From assembly GCA_030704615.1 (NCBI GenBank), contig CM060734.1, positions 1,860,001 to 1,924,000 on the forward strand: a stretch of 64,000 nt of DNA, read 5' to 3'. The notes under the pieces are model-generated. The model made no database searches. It had not been told where the DNA came from and worked only from the letters and a program-made list of their open reading frames with translations. Numbering within the stretch: the stretch's first letter is position 1; each line of letters starts with the position of its first letter. A program made the translations under genes and the position numbers. This DNA is from Takakia lepidozioides. Its lineage: Eukaryota; Plantae; Bryophyta. Positions 1,394 through 62,127 of this stretch are shown piece by piece.

Positions 1394-3100
1394 GTGGAGG
1401 AGGTGCACATTGTGAGTGTCATTACGGAGTTACCCAAGGGTTTTGAGGGGAGTACGGCTACAGGCAGTAACAGTGAGAGTGGGTTCACAAGACGAGGTAT
1501 TCGGTTCAGACCACCTTCACCGCCACCCTCAATTACTGTAGAGTCAGACACAGACTCGGAGGCTTCATCAACAGGTGTGCACTTTCATTCGCCATTGTTG
1601 TGGGACGACATGGAGGAGATGTATGGAGCTACCAAGGGGCCTCGTAGGTACTCTGGAGCTGTGGGCACAATCGAGTTGGATGACTTTATCCAGGAGTTCG
1701 ACAGCTGGTGTGATTTGCAGCAGATGCGCAATCCACAGCTATTCACCCCATTCATGGCGTGGAAGGGACTGTTCCAGCATTTGGAAGGCCGCCTATGGAC
1801 GATTACCACGAGTTCAGGCGAGGACATGAAGCAGAGATTGAGGAGTGGAGGATGTATTGGTCACCTGACTACGTCTCCATTACTCGAGGCACGACGCGAC
1901 CAGTAGCTGCATCAGTACCAATAGCTCCCACTGCCAGCACTAGTAGTGGAGCAAGTAGTGCTGGTACTTCTGCAGGTGGTACCAGTTCAAAAGGTGCTAC
2001 TACTCCTCCTGCCACGACTACAACACATGTGCCTAGATTCAACCCGGTGGTGGAGTTCTTCCAGGAGTTGCGGAGGAACTACCAAGGTGTACGGACAGAG
2101 AAGCTGCGAAGTTTGCAAGACTTCCAGCGCAAACCCAGTGAGAGCCTGCGAGAGGCGTACACTCGTATGAGGCGCTTGATAAGTGTGACCCAAGGGGTTA
2201 CTGAAGCTCAGGCAATCCAGTTTTGGTATGGAATTCTGGACAAGGAGCTCAAGAGAAGGGTGCGAGATGCAACCCTGTTACAAGCAGCCCAACCCACATT
2301 AGCAGATGTGTTCTGCTGGCTGAGCGGATTGAGCTCAACATGGTGGAGGAGCGAGTTGTTACAATTGGATTTGGCAAGGACATGCCTGCACGGGGCACAG
2401 CTGTCAGCCCACAGGCACAAGGGACTGCCCAACAGCGTGGTCAGGGGGGCAAGGTTGCCCAGCCAAGTTCCATGGAGCTTACAGGGGACCTCAGGTGCAG
2501 AGGCCCGTGGCATCTTTTGCAGGCCAACAGCAACCAGGGGTGATATGTTGGACATGTGGAGGACCCCATGTCAAAAGAGATTGCCCAGAGAGTGGCAGAA
2601 GGCCGGCACAAGCACAGCCTGCACAGTTGCAGTGTGGGCATTGTGGCAAGTATGGGCATGGAGATGCCCAGTGTTATGACTTGCATCCTGAGTTGCGCCC
2701 AGGCCAGTTCCAAGGGAACAATGGTGGCCGGGGGCGAGGTGGACCAGCCCAAAGAGGACGAGGTGGTCGGGCACGAGGTGCAGGCCAAGGGCAAGCTCCA
2801 CATGGCCAAGGACGCGGAGGTCAGGGTGTTGACCAAGGCATGGCCAATCGGCTTCAGCAGCTAGAGCAGAGGCTCGCTGCCATGGCTATAGCTCAGGCGG
2901 TACCGGCTCCCAGGCGGGATGGTCCACCTCCTGCTCCTGAGGGAGGAGATATGGGAGGCATGGGATTCATGTGCGGAGCAGCACTACCACTAGAGCAGGT
3001 GGAGTCTGCTGCAGCCGTGACTCGAGGAGCAGCACGAGTTCCTGAGCCACGAGGTGCAGAGGTGGAGTTGGATCCACACGTGGGGAGGCAAGCCGTCAGG
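1394..3100 (+). pseudogene. gag: gag (capsid-like region, two CCHC-type zinc knuckles, RGG-rich tail), split by frameshifts
   Basis: LDDFIQEFDSWCD; FQRKPSESLREAYTRM (gag major-homology-like); CWTCGGPHVKRDC and CGHCGKYGHGDAQC in ORF 2495-3229. Confidence 0.85.
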
Positions 3101-3539
3101 CGAGGCTGCCTCAGTCATTCACCTTGGCGGAGACAGTGTCAACGCCATCCATGGCACCTAGTTCTCGCCCGACTGTTACCGAGGCGGAGGTTACTATGCC
3201 ATTGGGGAGAGCTACACGTGCAGCACTGACACCTGCTACCAAGGCTAGTGCAGCCGGTGTGTTATTGGGGGCAGCCACCTCTGTGTGTCAAGCCCCACTG
3301 TTTCGGCAACCATGATTGCGACGCCGGGGGTGAGACCAGCTGCAGTGTTCAGACTAGCAGCAACACTCTGTGAGAGTGGGGAGGTCACTTCATCTTCTGC
3401 GGAGTTAGTGGAAGGTGTAGTGGCAGAGGGATCCTCGGATTTGAGGGTCAAGACTGCCACGGCTGCGCCATGGCAAGCTGCAGCTGCCAGGTTGACGGAG
3501 CTGCCAGCTAGGCCAGCCATTGAGCGCGCCATGGTGACA

Positions 3540-3960
3540 CCTGGAGTTGTCTTGTTAGACAACCAGGGAGGCATTTTCACTTTGAGTGGACCGGCAGGCA
3601 AGAAGTACCGGCCACTGCGGGTCTTGTTGGACTCAGGAGCTCAGCCACTGATGTTGGGCAGAGCTGCTATTGCAGGTTTGGGCCTCATGGAGGCGGATAT
3701 GGAGCCTTGTCCTTTCCAGATACAGACATCTCTGGGAGGATCAGAGCAGGCTCGCGGCATGACACGGCATCAGTTGGCTATTAGACTGCAGCCGGATCTG
3801 TAGATGGCTCAGTGATGCGAGCCAAGGCCATTGTGACAGACGCGGTCTCTTACGATGTCCTCGTTGGTGGGGCAGTGTTATACCCATGGGCTTCACCCTG
3901 GATTTCTGGGAGGAGTCAGCATCCTACAGGCCTGGATGGCAGTCAGGGGATGGTCGCCGT
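3540..3960 (+). pseudogene. Retroviral-type aspartic protease domain
   Basis: VLLDSGAQPLMLG (D-S-G active site) in ORF 3285-3803; downstream YDVLVGG-like flap-partner motif at about 3850-3870. Confidence 0.85.
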
Positions 3961-4335
3961 GCACAGCTCCCTGTGACATTCATTGGGGGTATTGCAGCTG
4001 CCCAGCGGGGCAAGATGCCAACACTAGCCGCCTTCACAGCTGCAGTTAGTTGGCCTGGAGAGTTGCTGGAAGGCAATGCCCATGCAGAGGATGTGCCACC
4101 TCCAGCAGAGCAGGATGACATGCATGGTACGGCGGAGTTGCCTGCCATGGTTGCTCACACTCCGTTGTGGGGTACGAGCAAGGATTTGCAGCAAGCTGCT
4201 GATGGACGGGTGCAACAAGCTTGGGTAGAAGCTTTTGTACCGTCAGGAGAGGAGGAGTGCGGTGATTGCACCAGGGCCACCTCAGTTGTCGCCATTGGAC
4301 ACCACACCTCTTGTGTGGCAGCCGGATGAAGGCAT

Positions 4336-5275
4336 TGCCTTCTGGACTTGTTTGGCGGGATCAGCACCGGATTGGCTGCTGTGCTACAGGCAGGTGTGCG
4401 GTAAGGCGTTACCTGTATGTGGAGAGGGATGAGACTGCACGACGCGTCTCACTGCCATGTGCTCAGTTGGTACAGCAGTACCCTGATTGTTGGCTGCAGT
4501 TCGTGGATACCAACAAGCCTTGCCAGCAGACATTTCTTGTTGGGGGCGCAAGATTTGGAGCAGGTTGGCTCCATTGATCTGTAGTGGCAGGTTGGCCCTG
4601 CCAAGGGCATTCATCAGCCGGGCATGGCAATGGATTGCGAGACTCGAGGACGGGTCTGTTTTGGGAGATGGTGCGGATTTTGCGCTGCTTGCAGCTTCAT
4701 CAAGCTGTATCTCCAGCATACATCTTGGAGAATGTACCACTGATGGGTGATTCTCGGGCCAGGGTGATGGCCAGTGTGCATCAAGTCCGGTCGTGGCTTG
4801 GGTCAGCAGTATTGCTGGATGCAGCTGCAGTGGGGTCACGGGCTCATCGTCCACGACTATGGTGGACTAACTTGATGCCACCCGCACTGCTCAAGCGTGC
4901 ATTTGATGGGGTGCAGCGGCCAGCACACCTCACCGTGGATGGCATTTTGGACACAGGAAGGCAGTCTCAACGTGTGAGACACGATGACCGTTCGCCTTTG
5001 GCAGTGGTCCAGGGTGGGTCAACCACGAGCAGCATTACCTACACTGCTCAGCTTCCCAGGATCCCATGCTTTTCGGGATGGTGGACCTGGCCTCCTGTGG
5101 GATGCTCAGTTGCAGCAGTTAGTGGAGCCTAATGCCGACGAGCGAGAGCGGGCTATGGGGTTTTCCACTGGGACCACGGCGGTGCCTTCTCTTTCTGAGG
5201 CATCACGTCGTCAGGTGTTGGGGCAAGCAATGGATCTCAATTGCTTGACCTGGATTGTCAGCTTGGCTATGGCTG
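4336..5275 (+). pseudogene. C5 cytosine DNA methyltransferase domain (DNMT3-like) embedded in pol
   Basis: Across frameshifts: motif I LLDLFGGISTG (4339), II RRYLYVERD, III LPADI, IV AGWPCQGHS (catalytic PC), V GLFWEMVRIL, VI YILENV, VIII DAAAVGSRAHRPRLWWTNL, IX ERERAMGF, X RRQVLGQAMD. Confidence 0.93.
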
Positions 5276-5689
5276 AGCAACGTAGAGTGCGGAGTGCACT
5301 TCCCTTGACGGTCTCTCTGCCTACCGAGACGGTACAGGCAGCGAGTGGGGGCGAGCCGGTGAGGACCACGAGGTGTAGACATCCATGGCACACGTGGGAG
5401 GTGCTCGAGGTTCAGAGGGAGTTGGCAGCGAAGGCAGCTGTGATGGATGAGGTTGGGGATTCTTCTCGGGATGAGGAGGTTCTCAATGATGAGATGATGG
5501 GGCAGGATGAGGCCTTGTCATTGACTGAGCAGGAAGGGGGTACTGCTCAAGAGGTTGCAGCATAGCAACCACGGGACGCGTCCTCTACCTCTAAGCCCAC
5601 TGGACTTAAGGTTGCAGTTACGGAGGACAATTGGGAGCCTGACATTGGACCCATTGTCACCGGAGGAGAGAGACGACGTATACGGCGGT

Positions 5690-6470
5690 TCCTGAGGGCT
5701 TACAGGAATTGCTTTGCCTTCAGTTTGAAGGACTTGGGAGCACTGAAGGGTCAAGAGATCCGTATTGAGTTGGCCACTGACACGCCAATCTTTCGGAGAC
5801 CCTATAGATACAGTGACATGGAGAGGTCTTTGATTCAGATGAGGACTCAAGATCTCTGGGAGGCAGGTTTGGTGGAGCTCTCTGGTGGAGAGTATGCTTC
5901 AGCCACAGTGATGCCAGCTAAGAAGGATGTCTATGGCAATTGGACGGAGAGACGTATGTGCGGTGATTACCGGCCTGTAAATCGTCAGACCAAGTCCGAT
6001 AGGTATGCCATGCCAACACCAGAGGAGATCTTTGATGCCATTGGGCATTCCAAGGTCTTTAGCACGTTGGATTTACGATCCGGATATCACCAGTTGCCGA
6101 TCAAGGAGGCGGATAAGCAAAAGACGGCATTCTGGGGGATCAATGAGCACGGGAAGGATTGCCTATACCAGTGGCGGTTCTTACCATTTGGGCTTAAAAA
6201 CGCCCGCTGAGTTTCAAAGAGTCATGGACAGGATTCTAGCAGGGGTGGAGTTTGCTCGGTGCTACATAGATGACATCATCATCTTTAGTGCTACGGTGGA
6301 GGAGCATGAGAGACACCTTCAGGGGGTATTTGAGCGCTTGAGGACGCACGGATTGAAGTTACATCCGGGCAAGTGCAAGTTTTTCCACAACCAGATTGAG
6401 TATCTGGGTCACATGATATATCCTGGAGGATTGGGGGTACAGCAGACTAAGGTAGTCCATTGCACAGGTT
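5690..6470 (+). pseudogene. pol: Reverse transcriptase domain
   Basis: RMCGDYRPVN, FSTLDLRSGYHQ, LPFGLKNA, catalytic CYIDDII (about 6260), LHPGKCKF, IEYLGH; 1-bp frameshift near 6205. Confidence 0.97.
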
Positions 6471-6485
6471 CCACGCCCCACGGAT

Positions 6486-8500
6486 GTGAGCCGAGTTCGA
6501 GCTTTCATGGGGTTAGCAAACTATTACAGACGGTTTGTTAAGGGATTTAGTGCCATTGCAAAGGCTCTAACCAAGCTGACCAAGGTGGACCAGGAGTGGC
6601 AGTGGGAAGATGAGCAAGAACAAGCTTTTCAAGAGCTCAAGGCGAGGTTGACCTCGGCGCCCATCTTGAGACGACCTATCAGGGGGCGTCCTTTTCAGCT
6701 GCATACAGATTGGAGCATGCTGGGGCTTGGAGCGGTGCTCACACAGGTGGATGATGAGGGAAGAGAGTTCGTAGTGGCTTATGCTAGCCGCTCGAACAAT
6801 GCTGCAGAGTCTAAGTATAGCTCATATGAGGGAGAATGCTTAGCTGCAGTGTGGGCCGTGGCACACTTCAGGTGCTATCTATACGGCAATCTCTTCACCC
6901 TTGTCACGGATCACCAACCACTCAAGTGGTTGATGGAGTCAGACAAGCTTACGGGGAAGCTTGCACGGTGGGCACTCATCCTTCAAGAGTATGACTTTCA
7001 GGTGGTGCATCGACCGGGTTTGGTCAATCGAAATGCAGATGGGTTGAGTCGCAATCCATGCACGAGCCAGCAGGATGACACTGGAGCTCGGTGGCATGGT
7101 GAGACGGACGAGGAGATGGTGCCCGGATGGCATGCATCTGCATTTCTGTGTATCTTGGCAGCGGAAGGCCAGGTTGGACCTACAACAGGGATGACTGTAG
7201 ATCAAGTGTCTGAGGACCCTGAGGCCAGCAATGAGCAGGGTGGCGCCAAAGATATACATGAGGATTCAGTTGTGTTGGACTACCTCCGCAGTGGAGACAC
7301 GGCAGCCACTATGACTGCCAAGGAGAGGGATCGGATCCTACAACGAGCCAAGAGGTTCAGGTGGGAGGGGACACACCTGCTCCGAGTGTGGGAGGATGGT
7401 CGAGTGAGGATTGTGCCTCACCCAACACAGCGGGCACGGTTAGTGCGGCATGCCCATGAGGAGTTGGGGCATTTTGGGGTGCGACGCACTCATAGTCTAC
7501 TGCAGGGGCAGTATTGGTGGCGTGGTATGCACACAGAGGTGCAACAATTTGTGGCTAGGTGCATGGTGTGTGACAGGGTGCGTGCTTCATTCAACGCCCC
7601 TACTCCACAATTGCACCCTCTTCCGATCATGGGATTGGGCTACAGGTGGAGTCTTGACTTCGCAGGGCCGTTGCCACTGACCATGCGCCACAACAAGTAC
7701 GTGTTGGTGATGGTGGAGCACTTCTCCAAGTGGATTGAATTGGTTCCATTGCCTGATAAGGCTAGTGAGGGAGCTGCGTATGCATTCCTGGATTGTGTGC
7801 TTAGCCGATTCGGTGCTCCAGCTGAGGTACTCACGGACCAAGGGAGAGAGTTCTTGGGGGAGTTTCAGGCTTTGTGTGACAAGGCCTTGATAGACCACCG
7901 CACCACTTCTCGGGATCATCCTGAAGCCGATGGCTTGGCAGAGAGAGTTGTTCAGACAGTAAAGAGGGGTTTGCGCAAGTATGGCTTGCAGAAGGGACAC
8001 CTAGGAGATTGGGACCTTCAGTTACCCTGGTTAGCCATGGGCTACAGGTTCAGCAAGCAAGCATCACTTGCCTCCTTCTCACCATACTTTCTTCTCTTTG
8101 GCCGAGAGCCGGATTTGCCTACATCCATTCGCAGAGAAGCTGCTACAGTTCTTAACCTTGACGATCCGGACGTGTGGGCACGTGCATGTGAGCAGCGTGC
8201 AGAGTTGTTCAAGAGAGTCATGCCCATGGCTTTCGAGAACCTTGCCATTGCACAACACCGTGATACGTTGAGGTATGCTACCATACGTGGTGGGGGGGCT
8301 ATCGTCCTGGGGTTCGGAGATTCAACCCTGGTGACTGTCTATCTGCAGCAGACTGCTCCTACGACCCTGGATGTGACTGCAGGACGTGTTATTTTGAGGG
8401 TTCGAGAGGTCTTGCCCTCAGGCGTCTTGGTCTTGGAGGGTCGGGATGGCATAACTTGGAAGGACCATGTGCGTAATTGTGCGCCATGTCACCTTCCGAA
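6486..8500 (+). CDS. pol: RNase H and integrase of pol
   Basis: RH: LHTDWS, EGECLA, VTDH, NADGLSR. INT: HAHEELGH…CMVC zinc finger, SLDFAG, LTDQG, AERVV (DDE). Confidence 0.97.
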
Positions 8501-8552: not shown

Positions 8553-8696
8553 TGCATGTTGTGTGGGTCTGCTAAGGGGCAGCCACCATGCTGGTGTGTG
8601 ATCGATGCTCTAGAGGTTGGCATATGGGATGCTTGACTCCACCTCTTGAGATGGTTCCGGATGGGGATTGGTTTATGTCCACATTGCATTGGATAG
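8553..8696 (+). pseudogene. PHD finger (C4HC3) at the integrase C-terminus
   Basis: With two 1-bp indels in homopolymers corrected: CMLCGSAKGAATMLVCDRCSRGWHMGCLTPPLEMVPDGDWLCPHCIG-stop (TAG 8694-8696). Confidence 0.9.
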
Positions 8697-8957
8697 TGGG
8701 AGTGGATACAACCATGGAAGGCTAACAAGAAACGCAAGGCCAGCTACTAGGAGACCTTGAACACACGAGGTCCTGGCTCAAGTTCACAGATTGCAAGACG
8801 GCGACTAACGATGGGGCTACTCTTGTACCCGGCCTCTTGGTCTATAGAGTTTGAGTACAATAGGGACAGTGATAGAGAGGACTTAGTACGGCTGTGGCTA
8901 TTACATCTTGTAGCTATCTGGAGGTAGAGGGACCTATCCACCAGCTAGGGGGGCGAT

Positions 8958-9543
8958 TGTGGCAGACTACTTTATTGTGCATATATGTGTGGTGTGGTTT
9001 GGACACAGCGATGTAGTTGTTGTAGCGATATGTATGCGCACGACAGCTGTCAAGTTAAATAAGCACAGTGTGAAAACAGCTAGAATAAAACTAGTTATTT
9101 GTATTTAACACTTGGATTTAGGTCAAGTGTTAAATCAGGTGTCAAGTTTAGTTTGACACCTGGTCCGTCTTATCTTCACGAGAGCGGCAGTCGCGCGGCT
9201 CATCTTTCTCGAGTTGAGCCTGCGCGACCGAGCTCCGCATCGTTTAGATTTGAGTGTGCTTATGAGGGAGTGTAGGTTGTTGTGGGGTGGAGTCCCATAG
9301 CTTGGGGTGCCCCTGGCTCGACTACTATTTCTAAGAGTGATGGTTTGGTTTTCATGTTTTGTGTCAACAGTGTGTCCATAGCTTTCTTATATTGTGGCAG
9401 ACTACTTATTTGTGCATATATGTGTGTTGTGGTTTGGACAGCGATGTAGTTGTGTAGCGATATGTATGCGCACGACAATAGCAAAAAATTCCTGCAACCA
9501 CGCGTGATCACGCGAGGTTCCTGTGTGTCTAGGCTCATCCACA
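8958..9543 (+). repeat. 3' LTR of the Gypsy element
   Basis: Follows the purine tract AGGGGGGCGA; starts TGTGG, ends CCACA (5-bp inverted termini); internal direct repeat 8958-9045 vs 9393-9477. Confidence 0.75.
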
Positions 9544-10533: not shown

Positions 10534-11284
10534 TGTTAGCAATTAGCTTACTGTCCATGATTAAGTATCAGATTGCTTCTGCAATCTACCATGTTCCATC
10601 TACTCAAGCATTCATTCCACAGCTTCACTCATATCTCTCTACACGGTGTGAGTATGAAATATGAATCATATTAATATCTATCATGTATCTGGCCGAAGCC
10701 ATGGTATCCCTAATCTGCTCTACAGTGCATCTCTACAGCTTGCATGTATCAAGCATCATCTCGTCGTATCTCCTCCTCTGTGTAATCTCCATCCCTGTGC
10801 TCCAAGATTGTGCTCTCCGCCGTGATACCAGAAACCATGTCCAAGCCGTGATCTCAGAAGTGACGTCCAAGAAGTGATCCCCTCCATGTCGCTACTCTGC
10901 CTATTCTACCTGCAAGCTGTTCTAACCGCCTAACTAACTAACTGTCATCCAAGACAGAACACACGTTCCCTCTGCAGATGTCGTTCCCACACAGTCGTTC
11001 CCTGCCAATGATAACCGTTCCCTGTGAACGCTGTGACGGGCTGTGTCAAACTGTGTCGGGCTGTGACTGATGTGTCACACTGTGTTAGGCTGTGTCTGAC
11101 TGTGACAGGCTGTGTCAGGCTGTGACAAGCTGTATCAGGCTGTGTCTGACTGTTGACTGTGTGAGCCTGTCTGCCACCTCTAAGGCATGTGTCTGCAAGA
11201 GTCTACTACCCGTAGGTCTGCGTAAAATTAAGGATACCCCACAGAACCCGTAAAACTGTCTAAGTCCCAGACAACCCTCTAACA
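10534..11284. repeat. LTR-like segment containing a roughly 10-bp CTGTGTCAGG-type microrepeat (11030-11170)
   Basis: Bounded by TGTTAG (10534) and CTAACA (11284); the right end abuts and truncates a DYW coding sequence. No TSD seen. Confidence 0.4.
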
Positions 11285-11560
11285 GATATGTGCCTGAGAC
11301 ACACTTTGTGTTGCGTGATATGGATCAGCAGATGTAGGAACATGCTCTTTACCACCACAGCGAAAAGCTGGCCATTGCTTTTGGGCTCATTAGCACACCC
11401 CCTGGGACCCCTATCCGCATCATTTAAAAACCCACGTGTATGTGAGGACTGCCACACTGCCACCAAGTTTATATCCAAAATTGTTACACGAGAAATTATT
11501 GCAAGGGATGCCATCTGTTTTCATCATTTCAACAATGGGGTGTTGTGAAGACTATTGGTA
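11285..11560 (+). pseudogene. DYW deaminase domain remnant (3' end of a PPR-DYW gene)
   Basis: (G)YVPETHFVL…[23 protein letters not shown]…[16 protein letters not shown]…FHHFNNG…CEDYW-stop, with a premature TAG and frameshifts. Confidence 0.93.
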
Positions 11561-23354: not shown

Positions 23355-23375
23355 GCCCTAACCCTAACCCTAGCC
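23355..23375 (+). promoter_or_regulatory. Telo-box-like repeat upstream of UTP11
   Basis: CCCTAACCCTAACCCTAG about 90 bp before the ATG. Telo-boxes are typical of plant ribosome-biogenesis promoters. Confidence 0.4.
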
Positions 23376-23457
23376 CAAGCCCTTGTCTCCCTCTCTTCGC
23401 ATTCTGAATCCGTGTGGGGTGGGTTGGAGGTGCAGCGGACGCAGGAAGTTGCTCACA

Positions 23458-24129
23458 ATGTCGTCTTTACGGAATGCAGTGAAGAGGCGTGCCCACAAGG
23501 AGCGGCCGCAGCCGAGTGAGCGGAGAAGATTGGGGCTGCTCGAGAAGCACAAGGATTATGTTCTGCGTGCCAGAGATTTTCACAAGAAGGAGGAGACTAT
23601 TCGGAATCTGAAGGAGAAAGCAGCGTTCAGAAACCCTGATGAGTTTTATTACAAGATGATTAACTCTAGGACAGTTAATGGGGTGCACAGGTCCAAGAGT
23701 GATGGGAAGCAATACAGTGAGGAGGAAATGCAGTTGATGAGGACTCATGACATTGGCTACTTGCTGACTAAAGCCCAGATTGAAAGGAAGAAGGTGGATA
23801 GGCTGAAGTCTGATTATTATTCTATCAACGACCCTCCCTCCAATAAACATGTGTACTACGCTGACGAGCGGGATGAGGCAGAGAAGCTAGGATCAGAAGC
23901 ACCAGAGAGGCCCCATGGTTCGCGTCAAGTCCCGAATCTGTCCAAGGGCTTGAGAAAAGAGTTGCAAGAACGTAGTGAGAGAGCTGAGAAGCTGCGTCAG
24001 ATGGCCATGACCATGTCATTGCAGAAACAGCTCACAGGGAAGGGCAGAAAGCGTAAATCATGGTCTGACGAAGTCGGCACATGTACAGAACAGCCTGTCT
24101 ATAAATGGCGACAAGAGAGGAAGACTTAA
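23458..24129 (+). CDS. UTP11: U3 snoRNP/SSU processome protein Utp11, intronless
   Basis: MSSLRNAVKRRAHKERPQP…LLEKHKDY…FRNPDEFYYKM…KGRKRK…VYKWRQERK; true ATG at 23458. Confidence 0.96.
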   Translation: MSSLRNAVKRRAHKERPQPSERRRLGLLEKHKDYVLRARDFHKKEETIRNLKEKAAFRNPDEFYYKMINSRTVNGVHRSKSDGKQYSEEEMQLMRTHDIGYLLTKAQIERKKVDRLKSDYYSINDPPSNKHVYYADERDEAEKLGSEAPERPHGSRQVPNLSKGLRKELQERSERAEKLRQMAMTMSLQKQLTGKGRKRKSWSDEVGTCTEQPVYKWRQERKT

Positions 24130-35948: not shown

Positions 35949-38453
35949 TTACCAATAATCTCCACAAGAACAAACCCCATCTTGGAAATTGTGGAAGTAG
36001 TTGGCATCCCGAACCACAATTGTGCACCCAACAATCTTTGAAATGAACTTAGTTGCGGTGTGGCAATCACCACACACTCAAAGGTTCTTGATGACACGGA
36101 TAGGCGTCCCAAGGGGCATGGCGATGAGCCCATAAGCTATAGCAAGCTTCTCACTGTGGTGATAAAGGGACAATTCCTTTCGATCCTCCTCTACATCATG
36201 CAATACAATGCGTGTGTCAGGCAGGTACCCAGCCTCCTTCAGCTGCCCAGCTACTCTCTTCAGCTCAGCATGGATTTCCTCAATTTGGGGATGCAATTTG
36301 TCTTCTCCAATGAATGTATGCAGTTGGTTGTTGACCTTATTGCAGCTCTGCCCTGGCTCCGTTCTGACACCTGTCCTCCATCATTTTCCTCACCTTTGCT
36401 TTGTCATCCCACCTACCTGCTGCAGCATAGATGATGTGGGTCACACTTGAGAATGCTCTTTGCCGCACGTTCCGCTACCTCCAAATCACCATGAATTCTA
36501 GAGGCACCAAACAAAGCCCTCCACACCCCAGCATCTGCTTTGATTGGCATTCTGATAATAAAGTCCTCTGCCTCAGCCAATCGCCCTGCACGGCCAAGAA
36601 TGTCCACCATGCAGCCAAAATGCTCCACCATAGGACTGAGACCATGGTCTTGGACCATGGATTCAAAGTAGTGTTGGCCTTCTTCCACTAAGCCTGCACG
36701 GCTACCCGACGAAAGAAGAGAAGTGAAGGTGATGCCATCCGGCTTCAAGCCCTCTTGTTGCATTTGTTCAAATAGTTGGAGAGCCTCCCTACCACACCCA
36801 TGCTGGGCATATCCTGCAATCATTGCACTCCATGAGACAGCATTCCGTTCAGTCATATTGTCGAATATTTTACATGCATTCTTCATGCTCCCACATTTTG
36901 CATACATGTCTGCAAGGGCAGTCTCCAAACTAACACATTTTGCAGTGCCAGCTTTGATTATGTCAGCATGGACATCTCTGCCCTTTTCCAGGGCACCTAG
37001 GCTGGCACACACATTGAGAACGCAGAGGAATGTGACCCTGTCAGGTGTCACCCCTTCACATTGCATTTGCTCATAGAGCTTGAAAGCCTCCCTACCATGT
37101 CCATGCTGGGCATATCCTGCCATCATCACACTCCATGAGACCACATTCCGTGTAGCCATGTTGTCAAAAACTTGCTGTGCATCCTTCATGCTCCCACATT
37201 TGGCATACATGTCAGCAAGAGCAGTCTCCAAATTAACATATGACACAATTCCAGCCTTAATGATGTCGGCATGGACCTCTCTGCCCTTTTCCAGGGCCCC
37301 TAGGCTGGCACATGCATTGAGAATGCAAATGAATGTGACCCTGTCTGGGGCCACCTGTTCCTGCTGCATTTTCTGATAGAGCTCGAAGGCCTCCCTACCA
37401 TGCCCCTGCTGGGCATATCCTGCAATCATCACACTCCAAGAGTCCACATCCCGTTTAGCCATATTGTCGAACAGTTGACGTGCATCTTCCATGCTATCAC
37501 ATTTCGCATACATGTCAATAACAGCATTCTCCAACTGAACAAATGACGGAATTCCGGCTTTGATGATATCGGCATGGACTTCTTTGCCTTTCTCCAGGTC
37601 TCCTAGGCTGACACATGCATACCCTGTTAGGTGTCACCCCTTCCCGTTGCATTTGCTTATAGATCTCCAAAGCCTCCCTCCCAAACCCATGCTGAGCGTA
37701 TCCTGCGACCATCGCACTCCATGAGACCACATCACGTTCAGCCATATTGTCGAACACTTGGCGCGCTTCCTTCATGCTTCCACATTTCAAATACATGTCA
37801 ACAAGGGTATTCTCCAGAATGATATCTGGTGCAATTATGCTTTTGGCGATATCAGCATGAACCTGCTGGCCCTTTTTAAGGGCACCAAGACTTGCACATG
37901 CATTGAGAACGCAAGTGAAGGTACCCCTGTCAGGCTTCACCCCTTCCCGTTGCATTTGTTCATAGATCTCGAACTCCTCCATACCATACCCATTCTTGGC
38001 ATATCCTTCTATCATTATACTCCAGGTAAACAAAGTTCGTTCTTGAATTGTGTCAAACACCCGGCGCGCATCCACCAGGCTCCCACACTTGCCATACATG
38101 TTGATAAGTGTATTGAGTAGCAGGATGTTTGGCTTGAACCCACTTTGATTTATGTGTGTGTGCACCTGCCTTCCCTCTGCTAAATCCTTCATCTTGATGC
38201 ATTCCTTCAAGAGATAGATGTAAAAACTGGAGTCTGCCCGAATGCCTTGCTGGTTCAAATTGTGCGATCCCTCTTTGAGACGTACTGCCTTAAAAAGTGT
38301 CCTCACATACCCACAAGTTGCAGAAGCGTTCTTGTTGACTCCTCTTTCAAAATCAGTGGAGATGGTGGAGGTGTTAGAACCAGTGCAAATAGGTCCAGCA
38401 TCACACGAGTGTAGGTACCTCTGGAGAGGATAGAAACAGGGCATGGTTTGCAC
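35949..38453 (-). pseudogene. PLS-class PPR protein with E and DYW domains (C-to-U editing factor), disrupted
   Basis: Repeated P-L-S motifs (DMYAKCGS…VVSWSAMIAGYAQHG), E domain, HHSEKLA, CGDCH, CSCGDYW-stop. Deletion frameshifts near 37620 and 36430; TGA in place of Arg at 36078-36080. Confidence 0.95.
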
Positions 38454-40679
38454 AAGAGATGAGTGATGATGGGGCGGGGAGAGGGGGAGAGATTGTGGGT
38501 AGCCTAGACGAAGTTGTAGAATGCTTGAGGTGCCAGTGACCAGTCCATCTAGAAAGAGATTTGGGAATTTCTGGAGGATTTTTCTTTCCCCCGGCTGCGA
38601 CCCTCAAGCCCAACAGACCCGCGCGTTCCTAGTCTGAAGCCCCGTCTGTGAAATCAACGAAAGGTTGATTATTCCTGACACGCCCATCTAGAAAGAAGAA
38701 GGGTCTGACATCACAGCCCGCCAAAGCTGCCAGTGTTGATAATAAGAAGCCTCTGCTGCATTATACCGTTCACCCCAAGGAGCAGAAAGGGCCTGGGGGA
38801 TATGGCATCTCCCCTCTCGCTCAGAAGAGCGCTGGAGCACGCTGCCATCTCTGCGATGGGTTCGTCGAAACAAGCTGTGTCCAACCGAATAAAGCACTTC
38901 ATGAGACATGGATGTCCGACCCTTTGAGGCTTCAACTCTTCAATGGTACCGCACAAATGTGGCAAAACTTCACTGTACACGAAATCTGAGCAGCAGCTGT
39001 GGATCCCAAGATGATACCACTCAGAATTTCTGCTTCACCTTACGCAACTACCCATGTGCAGTCACTAATCAAGTAGAGAAGAAATGAACGCCCACAAACA
39101 ATCCTGTATAGGGTAGAAGCTAGAAGCCACTATTATGGCTTGACAAGTTACTTAAATAACTTTCTGTACTTTTAACCTTTGAGCTCGTATTCTACCTCAA
39201 TAGAACGCTCTTTATATAAAGGTAGATTCCTTTAGTTGAGCACTAGCTTTGATAATGTCTTAAAGGCCTTAACCACTAAAGGACGAAGCGACCCATTGGT
39301 TAGGTTTTAGAAAAGTGTCTGGTTACCACTGGGGTTAAGCCTGATTTGGGCATGTTTAGGCTCATTGGATAGGTAATCGAGTCAGCTATGAGGTGGCATT
39401 TTCCAATTCGTCATTGGGCCTGGCCCCAGCCACGTGGAACACCTAGAGTCTGCCACTCTCGTGGTTTTCAGCCCCATTTTGGGCAGCTAACCTGCCCTCC
39501 ATCCTACGCGTCAACTAGGGTTAGGTTAGGGAGAAATTCCACGCACCCCCACTTGCACAGGGTGGCGCATCTCCCAACACCCTTTATTGCGCCCCCTCCA
39601 CCCTAAAGCGCCCCCATTCGCCGTGCCTCAGAAGGCCCCCATGCCTGTGCCCTACATACCTTAGGGCTACTGGCCAAAAGTATAGGCAAACATAGGTGCA
39701 CATGGAGAAGTCATGGGCAGGGGAAAAAATCATATGAAGGGAAGCTCTGATTGGCGCGAAAATATTTTTGTGCTTACACAAACCTGCCCACTACAGTACA
39801 ACCGGAGCGATTGACAATTCAACGGTTTAGATATTTTCACCGAATTTTCTAATACGGTTTTGTGCTTGCCCTTTTGAAATTGGGAAATTTGACCCCCCCA
39901 AATGGGCCATACAAAGCAGCCCACATGAGAACATGTCAGAAAAAGCTGAAATTTTCAGAAAAGCTGTGTTTTTTACCCCATTGTAAATAGGAAATTTGTT
40001 TTTGGCCCAACTTTCAACATTATATGCAATCCTGCGGGTCGATTTGGACCAGACTTTTTGCGGTCATAGCTGGGGTAGGTAGGAACATATTACAACGGTC
40101 AATTTTACAGGGCATGGGGAACTCAAGATATAAATTATTTAGTGGGGAAGGGTCAATTTTTGGGGGTGGACCCAAAAATTGGGGTTAGTCCTTTACGAGT
40201 TACATTAGTTCCCAACAAGTGGGGTACATATACCCCTTTGGTGGAGGTGTTCCTTTTATGGCTCAAAGACAATGGAGCCCCTCATGTGGTTCATACATGC
40301 ACCAAACATGGCTATATGTTCCGGTCTACTATTTCCTTTTTCCTTGTTTTTTAAAGAGAAAGGGGACATAGGCTCTTTTAATCAAATTAAATAAATAAGA
40401 GTTCACATAAGGTGGAAAAAATAACCACCAGGGAGGCCGTGAAGGCTCACCAAGGGGGAACATCCCCGAGACCGTAGCAAACTAGCTAAACTAGGTTGAA
40501 AGAAAGGGAGATAGATGAAGTGGGGAGTGAATTGGGAAGTAGAGAAACTCTATTCCTAAGAGACCAAAGTGGAAGCCCAATGAAGGCTGGAATTCATAAG
40601 TCGAAGATGATTCCTAGTGTAAGGCCACACAATGCCTGATCGTAACAGCATATACCAAAGCACTCGTAGCTTTCCAAAG

Positions 40680-45059: not shown

Positions 45060-45810
45060 CCTCTATGTACATGAGTAGGGGCAGGGCTGGAGGCACCGGA
45101 GACCTGTGAGCAAATGATATGGAAGGGGGTGCAACTAGACAAGGTCACATTCATTTCTCTTTGCATGCATGTGTGAGCCTGGCAACCCTGGAAATGGGCA
45201 AAGAGGTCCATGGGACATCATCAAGGGTGGAACTGTACGACGTGTCATTCTGAAAAATACCCTTGTTGATATGTATGCCAAATGCGAGAACACTGGGGAT
45301 GCAAAGGGAGTGTTTACCAACTTGGCTGACTGGGTTGTGGTGTCGTAGAGCACAATGATCCCAAGATATGTACATCAGCCCAAGAAGGGGTGGAGGATTT
45401 GGAGACCTGTGCGCAAATGCACAGCAGAAGGGGGTGTTCAGCCAGACCTGGTCACATCTTTCATGGAGCGCAATGATCACAAAATATGTGTATGAGTAGG
45501 GGCAGGGCTGGAGGCTTTGGAGACCTATGAGCAAATGATATGGAAGGGGGTGCAGCTACACCAGGTCACATTCATTTCTTTTTGCATGCATGCGTCAGCT
45601 TGGCAGCCCTGGAAATGGGCAAGGAGGTCCTTGGGTCATCGTGATGGCTGGAACTGTACAACATGTCATTCTGAAAAATACCCTCGTTGACTTGTATGCT
45701 AAAGGTGGGAGCACTGTGGACGCAAAGGGAGTGTTTAACAACATGGCTGAATGGGTTGTGGTGTCGTGGAGCACAATGATCACAAGATATGTACATCAGC
45801 CCGGCAAGGA
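45060..45810 (+). pseudogene. Degenerate PLS-PPR repeats
   Basis: VILKNTLVDMYAKC…DAKGVF…VVVSWSTMI twice, with stops and frameshifts. Confidence 0.85.
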
Positions 45811-46009
45811 ATCTCTGCTTTGCTGGTAGGACTTAGAAAGTGTCAACAACCACCCATATCATTCCGCGGACCCCCTGCACTAACTGCAGCCGGGTAGGCG
45901 GTTCATCGAGCCCAACCTACACCGTGACTTACCACGACCCCTCCCCTAGCTAGTATGTCGTCACCCTGGCCGCGCGCGCCCAGGGCTCGTCACAGGTGTT
46001 CGAGTTCAG

Positions 46010-46352
46010 AGGTACTTGTTTGTGGAGAGGGATGAGACTGCACGACGCGTCTCACTGCGCCATGTTGCTCAATTGGTGCAGTAGTATCTTGATTTGTTGC
46101 CGGTGTCTGCAATTCGTGGATACCAGCAGACATTGCCTGACTCTCCAGCATATATCTTAGAGAATGTGCCACTGATGGGTGATACTCGGGCCAAGGTGAT
46201 GGCCAGTGTGCATCAAGTTCGGTCTTGGCTTGGGTCAACAGTGTTGCTGGATGCAGCTGCAGTGGGGTCACGGGCTCATCGCCCACGACTATAATGGACC
46301 AATTTGATGCCACCTGCACTCCTCAAGCTTGCATATGATGGGGTGCAACGGC
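46010..46352 (+). pseudogene. Second, internally deleted fragment of the retrotransposon DNMT domain
   Basis: Nucleotide-level match to about 4404-4526 and 4710-4920: RYLFVERDETARRVS…YQQTLP / SPAYILENVPLMGD…DAAAVGSRAHRPRL; two premature stops. Confidence 0.93.
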
Positions 46353-48139: not shown

Positions 48140-50100
48140 AGACTCCAGTCGAAGCCGGCGTAACTAAGAGCCACTTTGCCTTGCGGCTACTGCCCCCTTT
48201 CGGGGGTGGGCCCTATAAAAAGAAAGGTGTCCCGTGGGACACCGGGTGACCGTTGAGAGTAGATACCACTGGGGGATCTAGGGTGCGTTTGAAGTGCCAG
48301 ATTCCAATTGACGTTTGTTGGTGATAATAGCTGTGAGTGAATGGAGTGCCGTGGTATGAATTGCTTTGAAGCATTTGTGGATGGGAAGAATGGGATTTTT
48401 GAAGTTATCGTGTATGTCATTGATACCGGCGTTATGGATGCCGCCTCGGGTGCCGGCGGTGATAACGGTTAACGAACCGGTTTTCCAGCCACGCCTTCGG
48501 ATTGCAAGGATAAGCGGAGCATATTTTTTTATGTTTTGCTAAGATTGAGTCATTTGGGTAACGATCATGGCAAAATGTGAATTCGATGAAATGGATGGTG
48601 AGGTGGGAGGTAGAGTGTTAATGGGTAGGCCTTGTACAAAGGGTATGTCCGGACAAAGCCTAGCGGGGCATGAGCATGGTGATCGGGTACATATGCATGG
48701 TAGCAACCATGGTGGTACAGTGTGGTCGGGTGGCCGCCCTTGGTAGGTGCCAGCGTTCATGAGCGAGAACCATCGGGTTTCAGCACATTTTAGAAAGAGC
48801 TTCTGGAGGTGCCAGACTGCCTGGTTATGTCGCGTGATGTGAAGGCCATGTATGATTGGGTGCGTACATAGGCTGAGAAGATGTGGCCAAGTGTCACGAG
48901 CTTGGTGGGTGATAGAACATAGCGGGCAGTATGGGGATGGGAACAGATGTGGCCAAAAGATGTGTTTGCGCTGGTGGCCCATGTAATGGGCATACCGGAA
49001 TTTGAGAGTTTGTCGGATTTGTACATCAATGGTAGCTTTGATTAGCCAAAAGTGATTTGAGAGTTTATGGTGCAATACATTGGATTGAGTCCATTTTTGG
49101 ATGTGTACTTTGGTGTGGCTGATGGAGGCTGCAGCTTGTTTATTTGCTTCTCTGGTCAGAGTGGTCAGAAGGTTTCAGACTGGTCTGGGTGCAGGGGGGT
49201 CCGGAACGGGGTGTATGAACCAGAAGGGGTGGGTGTGGGCAATGTGGATAGAGTCGTTCGTGGGTTCAACTCTGGGTTGGGAGGCGCCGAGTTAAGTGAG
49301 TAGGTCTGCTTCTTCATTACCAAGAATGCCGGTGTGTGAGTGGACTTTGAGTAGATGGACTGGGTGTTTTATGGAAGTGGCCTTTGAACAATGGCGGCAA
49401 TGAGGTTGCAGTCGGGGTGATGATGATGGGAAGAAGGGCAGGAGTGGTTTCGGATAAGATATAGTGAGGTGAGGCTATCGGTGAAGATATAGTATGGGGG
49501 GGGGAAGGCGTCTAGTAGGGAAAGTGCATCATGCATGGCCATCAGTTCAGCTCTTAGAATGGTGGCAGAGCCAGGGAGCCGGAGGGCAACACCCTGACCG
49601 CTGCCGGCGTGAAAAATTCCATACCGTGCATTAGGTTTGGTGAGGGATCCATCAGTATAGTGTGAGTTGGTGGGGGGATACTTAAGGATGGTGTGCTCCT
49701 GATATATTGAGGGAATGGGGGAGGGGGTGTTGTCGATATTTCCTTTGGGGGGGGGGGGGGCGTGGCAGCGCCATGCCCCAGGCTTTGTTTGTTTTAATCC
49801 GGGAACGTGTGGTGGCTATGTGGATGTGGGAGGACCTGTATCTGGGTAATGGATGGTGGCCTTGATTTTGTGGTTTATGGTTAGCAGCTGTTCGAGCTGG
49901 TGAAAAAAGGGTGTCGGTATTGTCAGGGGAAACAAGTGCCAATAAAACCCTAGGGGTTTATCAAACGAACAATGAACGGACGGAGGTAGGATGAAGTTGG
50001 AAGGAATGAGTGGGGCAAACAATGATGAATGCGCCAAGGGCATGGGCAGATGAAGAGAATGGGGAAGATGGAAGAGTTGGGTATTACTTATGTGCTTCAT
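48140..50100 (-). mobile_element. 5'-truncated non-LTR retrotransposon: RNase H, CCHC zinc finger, restriction-like endonuclease (Dualen/RandI-like order)
   Basis: RNase H YTDGS (about 49650), RAEL, IFTDS, KVHSHTGILGNEEAD (about 49310); CPLC…HLLSLC; RHNQAV; LCPDI; IEFTFC…KHKKYAPL…GW…ITAGTRGGIH. The 3' end abuts a (TC)n tract. Confidence 0.82.
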
Positions 50101-53394: not shown

Positions 53395-53720
53395 CCATGT
53401 CAGGCATATCCTGCAATCATTGAGTTCCATGACACCCCATCATCTCGTTAGCCATATTCTCAAAGACCCCTTTGCATCCTCAATGCTCCCATGTTTGGCA
53501 CACATTTTCATCAGTTCAAAATGACATGTGGAATGATTCCAACTTTGACGATGTCACCATGGAGCTCTTTTCCTTTTCCCACGTATGCCAAGCTTGCACA
53601 TGCATTGCAAGAGAGAGACATAAGAACTGCTGAACTGCCTCCTTCCTTCCATCTGGTACAATTCCAGCTTTGATGATGTCACCATAGACCTCTTGCCATT
53701 TTGCAGGGCTGCCAGGCCAC
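53395..53720 (-). pseudogene. Degenerate PPR fragment
   Basis: Minus strand reads …QEVYGDIIKAGIVP…AKHGSIEDAK..FENMANE..VSWNSMIAGYA-stop-HG. Confidence 0.75.
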
Positions 53721-55199
53721 ACGTTCTGAAATACCCAATCCGTACTTGACTAGGTCTTCCACACACAATCAGGTTAGTGCTCCATACAATTCTATCTTCC
53801 ATATCAACTTTATGTTTCTGTCATATTTCTTGGTTCATCTTTATTAATCACAAGAAGCTGTTGATGAATACGTGAAGATTTGGAATGGACATCGAGTTCG
53901 CACGATTAATGAAAACGGTCGATATCGTCGATCACATGTTCCTGCTCGTTTCTTTCGCGAGTATGAACGTTTGCATGGGTAAGCTCATGGTTTTCTCTTG
54001 TTTGTACTTTCATTGTTAAGCTACAATTTACATTGAAATGTTATTCTAATGTGGTGATGTGTTTAATCATGTAGATGGACCAGCCACCTTATTGATGACC
54101 CACGATTTAGGGAAGACCCCCAGCACATTGGTAACCAAGACTTGGGGCCTCGTGGGAATCAAAGGTGGCGATGTGCAGGTGGTTTGCATGACCTTCCCAC
54201 CAAAGGAGCTGAACTCATTCTTGACATGGTTCGTGTCCGTGCACAAGCTTATGAAATTGGAAAGGTTGGGAAGGATTCGATCTCTTGTTTTCATCTCCAC
54301 TACTACATGTCTCGGTATTGTGGTTTGGCAACGCATGAACATAGATATTTTGATCAATTGGACCTCATTGGTAATACCGTGTTAAGTAGGGAAGCTCTCC
54401 AACTTTTAATTACACAAGCTCTTGTATGTAATTGTGATTAAGTGAACAAGTGGGACAATCACATTCAAAGATAATTGTTTTATGTCATGTACTTTGAGGA
54501 TTTATGTTAAATAAATGTCATCTTTTCCCTTCATCATATCCATTGTCCATATTGAACCATACACCCTAAACCATTATCATCTCCCAACCATACTACTTGG
54601 GGGCAGGGCCTGGGTTGCACGATCTCTGGAGGGTTGTGAAATTGTTGGGTTTCATTGGGAAGTGCACAACGTGAGGCTCATGAGGCCACCTTTTATCTCC
54701 AACAATCTTTGTCTGCCCCACATATGAGACAATGATGACCAACTTGCCTCATTTTCAAGAACCCTCTATTCATAATCTAAGAATTTTGCATACAGTAATA
54801 AAAATCTGAATATACACTCATGGAGACACGAATATTCAACCAGGACTTATAGCTGCACCCTTGTCTCTTATATGCCATGTAGCTTGAGTTTCAAATCTGA
54901 TAACTTGTGTTCTGTTGATTGGAGTCATGGTTTCTCTACCTGCTATATAGCTTCCATAGCCACCGAGAGGTCTATCTCTCTAGGTTCTGGAACACTCCTG
55001 TAGCCTGTACAACCACAAAGTAGGATTTTTTTGCTTCCATGTAACATTTGTTTTTCTCACATAAGTGGTCAACAACCTTACACTTGGCATGATGATGATA
55101 GGTATGACAGGTATGATGATGAATGGTATCACTTGGCATGATAGGTTAGGAGTCTACTTTGAGATGCCCAAGTCAAGTTTCAACCTCTACTGAATGGAC

Positions 55200-59799: not shown

Positions 59800-62127
59800 G
59801 ATTGTGATGACAATATAGGGATCCGACATGCCAGCCTTGGCATTCCTGGCAAGGGATGTGCACGACGTAATCGCAGGTGCGGGAGGGCTTTTGTGTGTGG
59901 AAGGGGGCCGACAGCCAAGGTCACAAGCAGACGAGAATGATCCACCCTATATGTGTGATTGGGGATTTTGTTTTCCTCCACAATCTATCATGGTTGTTTG
60001 CAACCCTGTAACAGAGGACTATACATTCCTCCCGCCTTTATGAAAGCATTTGGAAAGCAAGGTACACTAGCTACATCCGTTCACTTAAACCTATTTATTG
60101 GCTTAAAATAAATTTGAATTGTGGAATGGCTTGAGGGGGGAGCGCGTCGATGGGGAGGCAAATGATATATTAGTCTGTTGTGTCTCCGCACATGTGTCGC
60201 ACACATGTTCAAGCACATGCAGGCAAAAGAGGGGTTTCAACCACATCCGTTCAATGGGTGCAATAGTCGTGCATGCATTGCAGGATTTCTTTTTCGCATT
60301 GAACAAAAACCAGATGACAAGTGAACGCCTCATTGGACAATCGAACGATTTTTGATTGATCTCGTATTACACTGGGACGTATCAGAGGGTACATTGAACA
60401 CACTGGCCAAGTTTCAATTTTTGGCGGGGGAGAAGCCGTGGGATGCTGGAAGCCGCAGAACAAAATCGATACGTGCCAAAAACCCCCACCGAAAGGCAGT
60501 GCAAACCTATTTATTGGCTTAAAATAAATTTGAATTGTGGAATGGCTTGAGGGGGGAGCGCGTCGATGGGGAGGCAAATGATATATTAGTCTGTTGTGTC
60601 TCCGCACATGTGTCGCACACATGTTCAAGCACATGCAGGCAAAAGAGGGGTTTCAACCACATCCGTTCAATGGGTGCAATAGCCGTGCATGCATTGCAGG
60701 ATTTCTTTTTCGCATTGAACAAAAACCAGATGACAAGTGAACGCCTCATTGGACAATCGAACGATTTTTATTGATCTCGTATTACACTGGGACGTATCGA
60801 GAGGGTACATTGAACACACTGGCCAAGTTTCAATTTTTGGCGGGGGAGTAGCCGTGGGATGCTGGAAGCCGCAGAACAAAATCGATACGTGCCAAAAACC
60901 CCCACCGAAAGGTAGTGCAAACCTATTTATTGGCTTAAAATAAATTTGAATTGTGGAATGGCTTGAGGGGGGAGCGCGTCGATGGGGATGCAAATGATAT
61001 ATTAGTCTGTTGTGTCTCCGCACATGTGTCGCACACATGTTCAAGCACATGCAGGCAAAAGAGGGGTTTCAACCACATCCGTTCAATGGGTGCAATAGCC
61101 GTGCATGCATTGCAGGATTTCTTTTTCGCATTGAACAAAAACCAGATGACAAGTGAACGCCTCATTGGACAATCGAACGATTTTTGATTGATCTCGTATT
61201 ACACTGGGACGTATCGAGAGGGTACATTGAACACACTGGCCAAGTTTCAATTTTTGGCGGGGGAGTAGCCGTGGGATGCTGGAAGCCGCAGAACAAAATC
61301 GATACGTGCCAAAAACCCCCACCGAAAGGCAGTGCAAACCTATTTATTGGCTTAAAATAAATTTGAATTGTGGAATGGCTTGAGGGGGGAGCGCGTCGAT
61401 GGGGAGGCAAATGATATATTAGTCTGTTGTGTCTCCGCACATGTGTCGCACACATGTTCAAGCACATGCAGGCAAAAAAGGGGTTTCAACCACATCCGTT
61501 CAATGGGTGCAATAGCCGTGCATGCATTGCAGGATTTCTTTTTCGCATTGAACAAAAACCAGATGACAAGTGAACGCCTCATTGGACAATCGAACGATTT
61601 TTGATTGATCTCGTATTACACTGGGACGTATCGAGAGGGTACATTGAACACACTGGCCAAGTTTCAATTTTTGGCGGGGGAGTAGCCGTGGGATGCTGGA
61701 AGCCGCAGAACAAAGTCTCGGACAACCTCTTCATCTTTCAGATCTTGGGTTGATATGTGATTGTCTTCAGACATATTTATTTTTGGGATAGTGGACATTT
61801 CAATTCTTTCCCTCTTCTTTCCTCTTTGGTTTCATTGCTATGCATCTTGCAATGTAAGTTTGCAACTCCATACATGATCAGTTTTGGCAGGTGGCTCGCA
61901 TGGATTTGAACCGCTCATGCGACAAAGGGTACACCATCACTGTTGTGGGGTACAACAACTCTCAGGTTTTGGCACGAGACAGGCCTGATGTCTTGGAGAT
62001 GGTGGTTGCCATCTATGACTCATGTGTAGCAAGAGGGGAGTGGGTGTATTGGCATGATACTAGTGGGTTGCGAACCAATAGTTGTGGACAAAGCTCGTTG
62101 GCACTTATCGATGGTTATTTGCATTAG
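59800..62127 (+). pseudogene. F-box-associated (beta-propeller-type) gene fragment, two exons
   Basis: AGAGGLLCV…MVVCNPVTEDYTFLPPL-stop; donor at about 60062, acceptor at 61890, then YTITVVG…AIYDS…GEW. Confidence 0.6.
60087..61714. repeat. Near-perfect tandem array, 416-417-bp unit, about 3.9 copies
   Basis: Units start AAACCTATTTATTGG at 60087, 60503, 60919 and 61336; near-identical ORFs recur in the ORF track. Confidence 0.98.

Follow-up and report, generated by a model that had tools for sequence, protein, structure and literature searches.

A land-plant branch of Ty3/Gypsy retrotransposons carries a DNMT3-like methyltransferase ahead of a conserved, likely leaky stop codon

Why would a retrotransposon carry a cytosine methyltransferase (MTase), and which of its reading frames supplies the enzyme? 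These questions arise from a window of 64,000 nucleotides of Takakia lepidozioides DNA (GCA_030704615.1, contig CM060734.1, positions 1,860,001 to 1,924,000). Between positions 1610 and 8692 of its + strand, the window contains gag, protease, MTase, reverse transcriptase (RT), RNase H, integrase and PHD finger domains in this order (Table 1), with a Retrotrans_gag match in Pfam that stays below the cut-off (E 0.0023). The order GAG-PR-RT-RH-INT is present in the family, as in Ty3/Gypsy elements. We rejected the DIRS class, which uses a tyrosine recombinase: among the window ORFs scanned no match to such a recombinase was found, and rve and H2C2 integrase domains were found instead.

Table 1. 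Positions of the element's parts and of a second MTase fragment in the window
Feature	Position	Strand	Basis or remark
gag region, zinc-knuckle-like Cys/His motifs	1610..3229	+	tblastn to Marchantia P0014, residue 1 at 1610; frame changes break the copy
aspartic protease	3552..3930	+	LLDSGAQ 3624-3644; tblastn to P0014 protease; weak Pfam Asp_protease_2, E 0.024
DNMT3-like C5 cytosine methyltransferase (MTase) domain	4336..5275	+	PC, ENV intact; five frame changes
ORF1 tail after MTase, variable	5276..5562	+	tails of ~80-170 aa in intact relatives
conserved in-frame stop TAG, then CAA CCA (CAR-YYA readthrough context)	5563..5571	+	putative readthrough
reverse transcriptase	5566..6460	+	YIDD 6263-6274; Pfam RVT_1, E 7e-9 and 2e-16; one frame change near 6200
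RNase H and DDE integrase (H2C2 finger, core)	6456..8340	+	Pfam RT_RNaseH E 4e-36, Integrase_H2C2 E 3e-16, rve E 3e-14
PHD finger, integrase C-terminus	8582..8692	+	Pfam PHD E 1.3e-7; frame-shifted in the window copy
purine-rich tract directly 5' of repeat B1	8947..8955	+	putative plus-strand primer
terminal repeat B1, GACA end	8956..9045	+	
palindromic B1/A junction GACAGCTGTC	9042..9051	.	CA end, 2-bp spacer, TG start; also in L011, L019, L063
repeat A, 3' copy	9048..9390	+	placed by analogy with L036, L057, L063
terminal repeat B2, GACA end, element 3' end	9391..9477	+	93% identical to B1 over 90 nt
second MTase fragment, same family, internally deleted, without motif IV, stops inside	45993..46352	+	79% identical to 4391-4524, 91% to 4710-4920

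The window copy is dead. Frameshift-aware alignment places frame changes in the MTase near 4399, 4485, 4535, 4579 and 5010, with one more just upstream at 4334, and the MTase motifs are scattered over several frames. At several of these places other contigs of the host runs show small indel differences, so the breaks look copy-specific. In one host run, 22301 contigs map to 2 kb of the element, a figure that is not a copy number and from which we conclude that the family is very abundant in its host. Upstream of gag, positions 1-1600 including an ORF at 403-879 gave no match in the metagenome loci described below, the stored proteins, Pfam or Atlas (best score 0.78). Two overlapping ORFs of 137 and 158 aa at 156-879, with the element's G-rich strand bias and also without a match in the loci, Pfam and Atlas, could be part of a long 5' region or of a different element. 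The second MTase fragment lies isolated between a PPR fragment and other repeat-like DNA and may be a piece captured by another element.

An earlier sequence-only reading had described linearly ordered C5-MTase motifs, located between a DSG protease and a YIDD RT on the same strand, with PC and ENV intact. We could confirm this arrangement on the + strand: motif I LDLFGGISTG lies at 4342-4371, II YVERDE at 4416-4433, IV AGWPCQG at 4587-4607, VI ILENV at 4722-4736 and VIII RAHRPRLWWTN at 4839-4871, followed by ERERAMGF (5140-5163) and LGQAMD (5218-5235). The profile check proposed at that time, a search with PF00145, gave a Pfam match in the longest open piece (4578-5129, E 1.6e-10, above the curated cut-off). 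Frameshift-aware alignment to the Calypogeia protein P0003 (250/334 residues identical) contains no intron-sized gap, in agreement with the description of the domain as intronless.

The proposed resemblance to DNMT3 rather than to the permuted DRM enzymes was also borne out, in PDB sequence and fold comparisons performed with the intact relatives P0011 and L030 in place of the window copy. The top 25 PDB sequence matches of P0011 are DNMT3A, B or C (best E 9e-9), with DRM and bacterial enzymes ranking lower. An AlphaFold model of the intact L030 domain (pLDDT 96.6) has DNMT3A and DNMT3B as its best folds (DNMT3A: E 1.4e-19, TM 0.74/0.83). Motifs I-X are linear with PC, ENV and RxR, and SAM-binding and catalytic motifs are conserved among the relatives. 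The catalytic cysteine, which was not part of the search pattern, is kept in 73/73 loci covering the position; counts for ENV and RxR are biased, since loci were chosen by MTase motifs. Judged by sequence and predicted structure, the element MTase is DNMT3-like and linear, not DRM-permuted, and an identity as DRM, MET1 or CMT was rejected on motif order and PDB ranking. A domain kept for a non-catalytic role (DNA or RNA binding, particle structure) or for RNA methylation would agree with the inactivity of the related Klebsormidium domain on yeast DNA, a result that its authors call inconclusive (PMC5890265; here and below, cited articles are drawn on in part). The conserved SAM-binding and catalytic motifs, together with a modeled fold that is that of DNA-specific DNMT3, make such a role very improbable.

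Relatives of the domain occur well beyond this copy. With window positions 4578-5003 as query, we obtained 54 matches of 45-93% identity among proteins of 250-2000 aa. The 23 named ones comprise 16 Marchantia entries (partly the same loci under different annotations), 5 from Calypogeia and 2 from Sphagnum, the named species being Marchantia polymorpha, Calypogeia fissa and Sphagnum troendelagicum. The Marchantia and Calypogeia relatives are known here from proteins or gene models, not from DNA. A metagenome scan yielded 85 loci, of which 80 were kept, and a large subfamily among them shares a cluster at the 90% level with proteins from Sphagnum jensenii and S. troendelagicum. RT or RNase H follows the MTase in 61/80 loci, while 11 end too soon and 8 have neither; the order gag-PR-MTase-RT-RH-INT-PHD is kept in 11/11 loci with seven detected domains. 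As loci were chosen by MTase motifs, copies without the domain could not appear in this set. The viral contigs that we searched contained no relative.

Three subfamilies were compared, represented by the window, L030 and 12 selected copies from the large subfamily. The MTase gave a pN of 0.25 at a pS of 0.67-0.76, with synonymous sites near saturation. The corresponding pN is higher in gag and protease (0.27-0.34) and lower in RT, RNase H and integrase (0.10-0.20), which places MTase conservation above gag or protease and below RT, RNase H and integrase. Within-subfamily dN/dS is ~0.67 for the MTase and 0.39-0.65 for the other domains; these values mirror decay after insertion and say little. 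From the sequence comparison between subfamilies we conclude that the element MTase is under purifying selection. Of the alternatives raised by the sequence-only reading, a domain free of such selection across copies does not describe this family, and a single chance insertion of a host DNMT3 gene was rejected, the MTase being common to the family and its tree matching the RT tree at the main clades. As a separate observation, decay in the Sphagnum-like copies turns mainly Gln and Arg codons into stops, as heavy cytosine methylation followed by deamination would give.

The MTase frame of the window continues for ~95 codons past the domain and closes at TAG (5563-5565), and the RT frame opens in the same phase at 5566. 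The earlier placement of the MTase inside pol had to be abandoned: with a conserved stop between MTase and RT, the MTase is part of the gag-PR ORF rather than of a continuous pol. The related expectation that the domain is in frame with protease and RT holds for the phase and fails for continuity, as the stop cuts the MTase off from the RT.

We compared this junction in 65 sequences (the window and 64 of the 80 loci). The junction codon is TAG in 45, TAA in 18 and a sense codon in 2, which amounts to a stop in 63/65, and the next codon is CAA in 64/65. The 64 loci represent mostly one subfamily and the same insertion recurs in several metagenomes, so that the independent cases are the three subfamilies. 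TAG CAA CC is identical in all three, while the flanks are 27-52% alike (about 40%). A stop is found in 95% of copies at the junction, compared to at most 27% at the most decay-prone sense codons. Four runs, including 3018 host contigs, showed no variants at 5561-5571 at a 2% threshold; one contig in these runs stems from a second organism and has 23 differences nearby, none of them at 5561-5571. The stop conservation in 63/65 junctions, the lack of variants in these runs and the shared TAG CAA CC led us to reject random decay of the window copy as the source of the stop. U-to-C editing of the stop was set aside because it is an organellar process. One run, perhaps of RNA and possibly of DNA, contains a contig that crosses the stop without a joint; we did not count it as evidence.

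Exact CAR-YYA contexts were found in 5/65 junctions, among them those of the window, L030, L077 and L078. In 58/65 junctions the stop is followed by CAA CCC, one base off CAR-YYA, and then by ATG in the large Sphagnum-like subfamily. CARYYA stops have been reported in some plant LTR elements. The literature that we searched contained no case of CAR-YYA tied to the gag/pol stop codon of an LTR retrotransposon. In tobacco mosaic virus, the UAG CAR-YYA hexamer drives readthrough (PMC2194720, PMC4132726), and the same exact hexamer is present at the four junctions named above. The difference is that in the present retrotransposon the hexamer would govern how much Gag-PR-MTase is made relative to RT-INT, and that the largest subfamily is one base off. 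For Tca2, a gag-pol stop without detectable readthrough in yeast has been described (PMC2194720). Predicted RNA folds 3' of the stop, computed without a shuffle control, had no structure in common. On the sequence context we consider the conserved stop likely to be leaky, i.e., read through.

Of 203 proteins carrying a near-complete MTase, 28 stop behind it (contig ends may account for a few of these), 12 continue into downstream RT or RNase H, 132 place the MTase ahead of the integrase, in most cases behind RT-RNase H, and 31 lack the length to be classed. The 28 include intact gag-PR-MTase ORFs of 1228-1437 aa, and the annotated Sphagnum protein P0480 terminates exactly at the stop. Four of the 12 joined proteins are Marchantia gene models, i.e., predictions, that skip part of the linker. 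These four models, which link the MTase to downstream domains, could be taken to mean that RT, RNase H and integrase derive from a message that is spliced or has its own start, or arise by re-initiation, with the MTase still a product of ORF1. Two-ORF layouts of gag-PR and RT-INT are known in plant LTR elements (PMC6317226), and the ATG of the Sphagnum-like subfamily, two codons after the stop, would permit re-initiation. We regard this route as unlikely, because the joins of the four models lie at four different places and a single in-phase stop with an invariant 3' context is found across three subfamilies. Further, two of the three have no ATG within 47 codons of the stop; their first ATG comes 48 or 85 codons on, inside conserved RT sequence.

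Trees of the element's MTase and RT domains (midpoint-rooted, with no outgroup; the first layout represented by 28 and 22 randomly drawn members plus the named ones) agree in both main clades and in the land-plant clade (support about 1.0), and their patristic distances correlate at 0.69. The first clade has the layout RT-RH-MTase-INT-PHD and includes Scenedesmus and Monoraphidium. The second, with the MTase before the RT, includes a Closterium protein and the land-plant elements. A nested clade (0.989) comprises most of the forms that terminate behind the MTase and encloses the land-plant group (0.99) and other relatives. With midpoint rooting and no outgroup, the trees speak for long co-inheritance of the two domains and not for an order of events. 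In algal relatives MTase and RT are in one ORF, and the stop is therefore not needed for retention of the domain. Polyproteins of the order RT-RH-MTase-INT-PHD were seen in P0186 (Scenedesmus sp. PABB004), P0345 (Monoraphidium neglectum) and 130 others, the named ones being chlorophytes.

DNMT-carrying retrotransposons of dinoflagellates and charophyte algae had been mentioned by the sequence-only reading, and both are on record as SymbioDIRS-Dnmt3 and KnitGypsy-Dnmt3 (PMC5890265). KnitGypsy-Dnmt3 of Klebsormidium nitens, described by de Mendoza et al. in 2018, is the closest known element as far as the available parts of that article allow a comparison. It shares the Gypsy domain set, an intronless, non-permuted Dnmt3-related MTase under purifying selection and, according to the legends of Fig. 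1 and Fig. 4, DIRS-type split repeats in the arrangement A-coding-B-A-B (PMC5890265). In contrast to the element described here, where a stop lies between gag-PR-MTase and RT-RH-INT-PHD, the algal DNMT is in the RT/RNase H ORF according to the paper and the authors' reply; the hosts also differ, an alga there and a land plant with very many copies here (PMC5890265). None of our matches is named as K. nitens, while the Closterium protein with the MTase before the RT falls in the same large clade. SymbioDIRS-Dnmt3 of Symbiodinium likewise combines a Dnmt3-type domain with split direct repeats, and de novo CG methylation by its enzyme was demonstrated in yeast; it differs in its tyrosine recombinase in place of a DDE integrase and its dinoflagellate host, and is described as an independent capture (PMC5890265).

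Other published groups can be compared as well. EpiLTRs/DAM-LTRs are Ty3/Gypsy-like and combine DNA methyltransferases with a chromatin-reader domain, but they carry an adenine MTase and a DNMT4-sister cytosine MTase with a chromodomain, in Cymbomonas and Euglena; the parts of that text available name 'Gypsy-DNMT3' for streptophytes only and contain neither 'land plant' nor 'moss' (bioRxiv 10.64898/2026.05.21.726589). The non-chromovirus Gypsy clades Phygy and Selgy (Neumann et al. 2019, PMC6317226) occur in non-seed plants and have target duplications of 4-5 bp, whereas MTase or PHD have 0 occurrences in the available text, on whose descriptions our comparison is based, and the NCGN targets preferred by Phygy do not fit the duplications of our element. 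The host enzymes PpDNMT3a/b have a linear DNMT3-type catalytic domain, found in non-flowering streptophytes (Yaari et al. 2019, PMC6453930). They differ by a C-terminal DUF3444, for which the element domain, located in a retroelement ORF, has no Pfam match. In the literature searched, which lay mostly outside subscription journals and included the available parts of PMC12344493, PMC6453930, PMC6317226, PMC11982613, PMC11244446 and PMC9861306, we found no description of a land-plant or chlorophyte element of this kind or of its stop. This kind of element has been known since 2018; what we describe is a branch from land plants in which DNMT3-carrying Gypsy elements encode the enzyme within ORF1, followed by a conserved and likely leaky stop.

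The ends of the element are split repeats. At the 3' end of the window copy the purine tract is followed by B, GC, A and a second B, and a 5' partner of A is absent, as no upstream match to this repeat was found within the window. The 50 nt around the purine tract are 86-88% identical in Sphagnum-like copies. The complete relatives L063 and L036 have the arrangement A-coding-B-A-B with TGTC...GACA ends and 4-bp target duplications. Five others (L025, L035, L042, L052, L075) are A-coding-B without any repeat at all, also with 4-bp target duplications; this form could have arisen when two B repeats recombined, or when a one-junction circle integrated. The duplications read AAGG, TCTC, TACA, TGTT, TGTG and CACA. 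TG...CA ends with a duplication in the 4-6 bp range of Ty3/Gypsy elements were thus found in seven loci, while the window displays the 3' end only. Two full direct LTRs flanking the coding region are not what these copies have, the ends being A...B-A-B or A...B. The form A-B-A-coding-B was not found among 41 loci with a repeat match, and inspection by eye for a tRNA primer-binding site revealed no TGG-type site after repeat A in L011, L036, L057 and L063. In L009 (6343-6455) and L016 (8602-8714), a reversed B repeat lies ~1.3 kb upstream of gag, at the expected place of A.

The internal junction GACAGCTGTC (GACA-GC-TGTC) is a palindrome that joins both element ends head to head. It has the geometry of a circle junction in the window, L011, L019 and L063, and a DDE integrase could nick it after CA on both strands, with 2-nt overhangs. 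Repeat B closes with 22 nt that contain three CGs and differ hardly at all between the window and the Sphagnum-like family. One could therefore propose that the MTase acts on the element ends and that methylation separates the internal B1/A palindrome, which has to survive, from the identical new terminal junction, which has to be cut. The internal palindrome does reproduce both ends, the B end is conserved together with its CGs, and MTases recur in split-repeat elements (SymbioDIRS-Dnmt3, KnitGypsy-Dnmt3, and adenine MTases in DIRS; PMC5890265). We consider such a function improbable, though, since integrase binding may by itself explain the conserved B end, a Gag-level supply of enzyme exceeds the need of one site, and DIRS elements without DNMT are still active in Symbiodinium (PMC5890265).

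Our best explanation, held with moderate confidence, is a decayed Ty3/Gypsy copy whose ORF1 ends in a DNMT3-like MTase ahead of a likely leaky stop, with the enzyme supplied at Gag level and likely methylating the element's own cDNA. Layout and conservation are directly observed, whereas translation, cleavage, packaging and enzyme activity are steps that we infer from the sequence. Most ribosomes would terminate after the MTase, giving Gag-PR-MTase as the main product, and a few percent would read through to a long form with RT, RNase H, integrase and PHD finger. The element's protease would then free the MTase within the particle, where it would outnumber RT and integrase. There it would methylate cytosines on new double-stranded cDNA before integration, probably in CG context by analogy with SymbioDIRS-Dnmt3. 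New copies would thus land pre-marked like host transposon DNA, and the PHD finger of the integrase would likely steer insertion by histone state.

CpG observed/expected ratios are 0.50 for the window element versus 0.48 for the host background, and 0.27 and 0.56 for L030 and L063. Extra CpG loss as a sign of self-methylation was therefore not seen in the window element relative to the host background. This background-level ratio speaks against our best explanation, as do the yeast result of the algal enzyme, the precedent of Tca2, the two junctions with a sense codon and the small number of exact CAR-YYA contexts.

Alternatively, the MTase could work in the nucleus in trans, on integrated copies or host DNA, and curb the element or shift the host methylome. 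High output ahead of the stop would leave enzyme in free form, the family reaches very high abundance in its host (the 22301 contigs of one run mentioned above), and self-limitation was raised as a possibility by the 2018 paper (PMC5890265). Copies without the domain would, however, benefit as well, in poor agreement with the fact that the domain has long been retained beside the RT, and we hold action in trans to be rather unlikely. A wider scenario can be offered only as a speculation of low probability. A green-plant Gypsy lineage would have kept a working DNMT3-type enzyme since before land plants, its position shifting between after RNase H in chlorophytes and before RT in streptophytes. 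In the bryophyte-containing branch a leaky stop would have been placed behind it, loading every particle with enzyme. Pre-methylated cDNA and integrase cutting gated at the palindromic junction would together form the element's own modification system, with integration via the circle junction.

Since 2018 the role of retrotransposon-captured methyltransferases has awaited an answer, in part owing to the experimental difficulty of the known hosts. Uninterrupted long gag-PR-MTase gene models in Marchantia polymorpha, a species with genetics and methylome data, make the question testable. From the position of the stop, directly downstream of the MTase, one would predict a demand for the enzyme in the amounts of a structural protein, which favors work on cDNA in the particle. 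Owing to their split-repeat ends, members of the family are likely missed by tools that search for paired LTRs, and copies can be miscounted as host DNMT genes.

Some other features of the window are worth recording. An intronless UTP11 ORF (23374-24129), 50-64% identical to land-plant proteins, is possibly a retrocopy; in a one-gene tree of 42 of the 120 listed matches plus the window, the latter groups (0.996) with proteins that carry no species name and lies outside the liverworts, lycophytes, ferns and seed plants that do, as would be likely for a moss or hornwort. PPR and DYW sequences, some of them broken or fragmentary, lie at 11264-11548, 36413-38603, 45064-45802 and 53395-53722. On the minus strand, 48539-49815 contains a non-LTR-like fragment in which Pfam recognizes an RNase H domain (E 3.5e-6), and ~416-bp units of 99% identity form a tandem array at 60087-61717.
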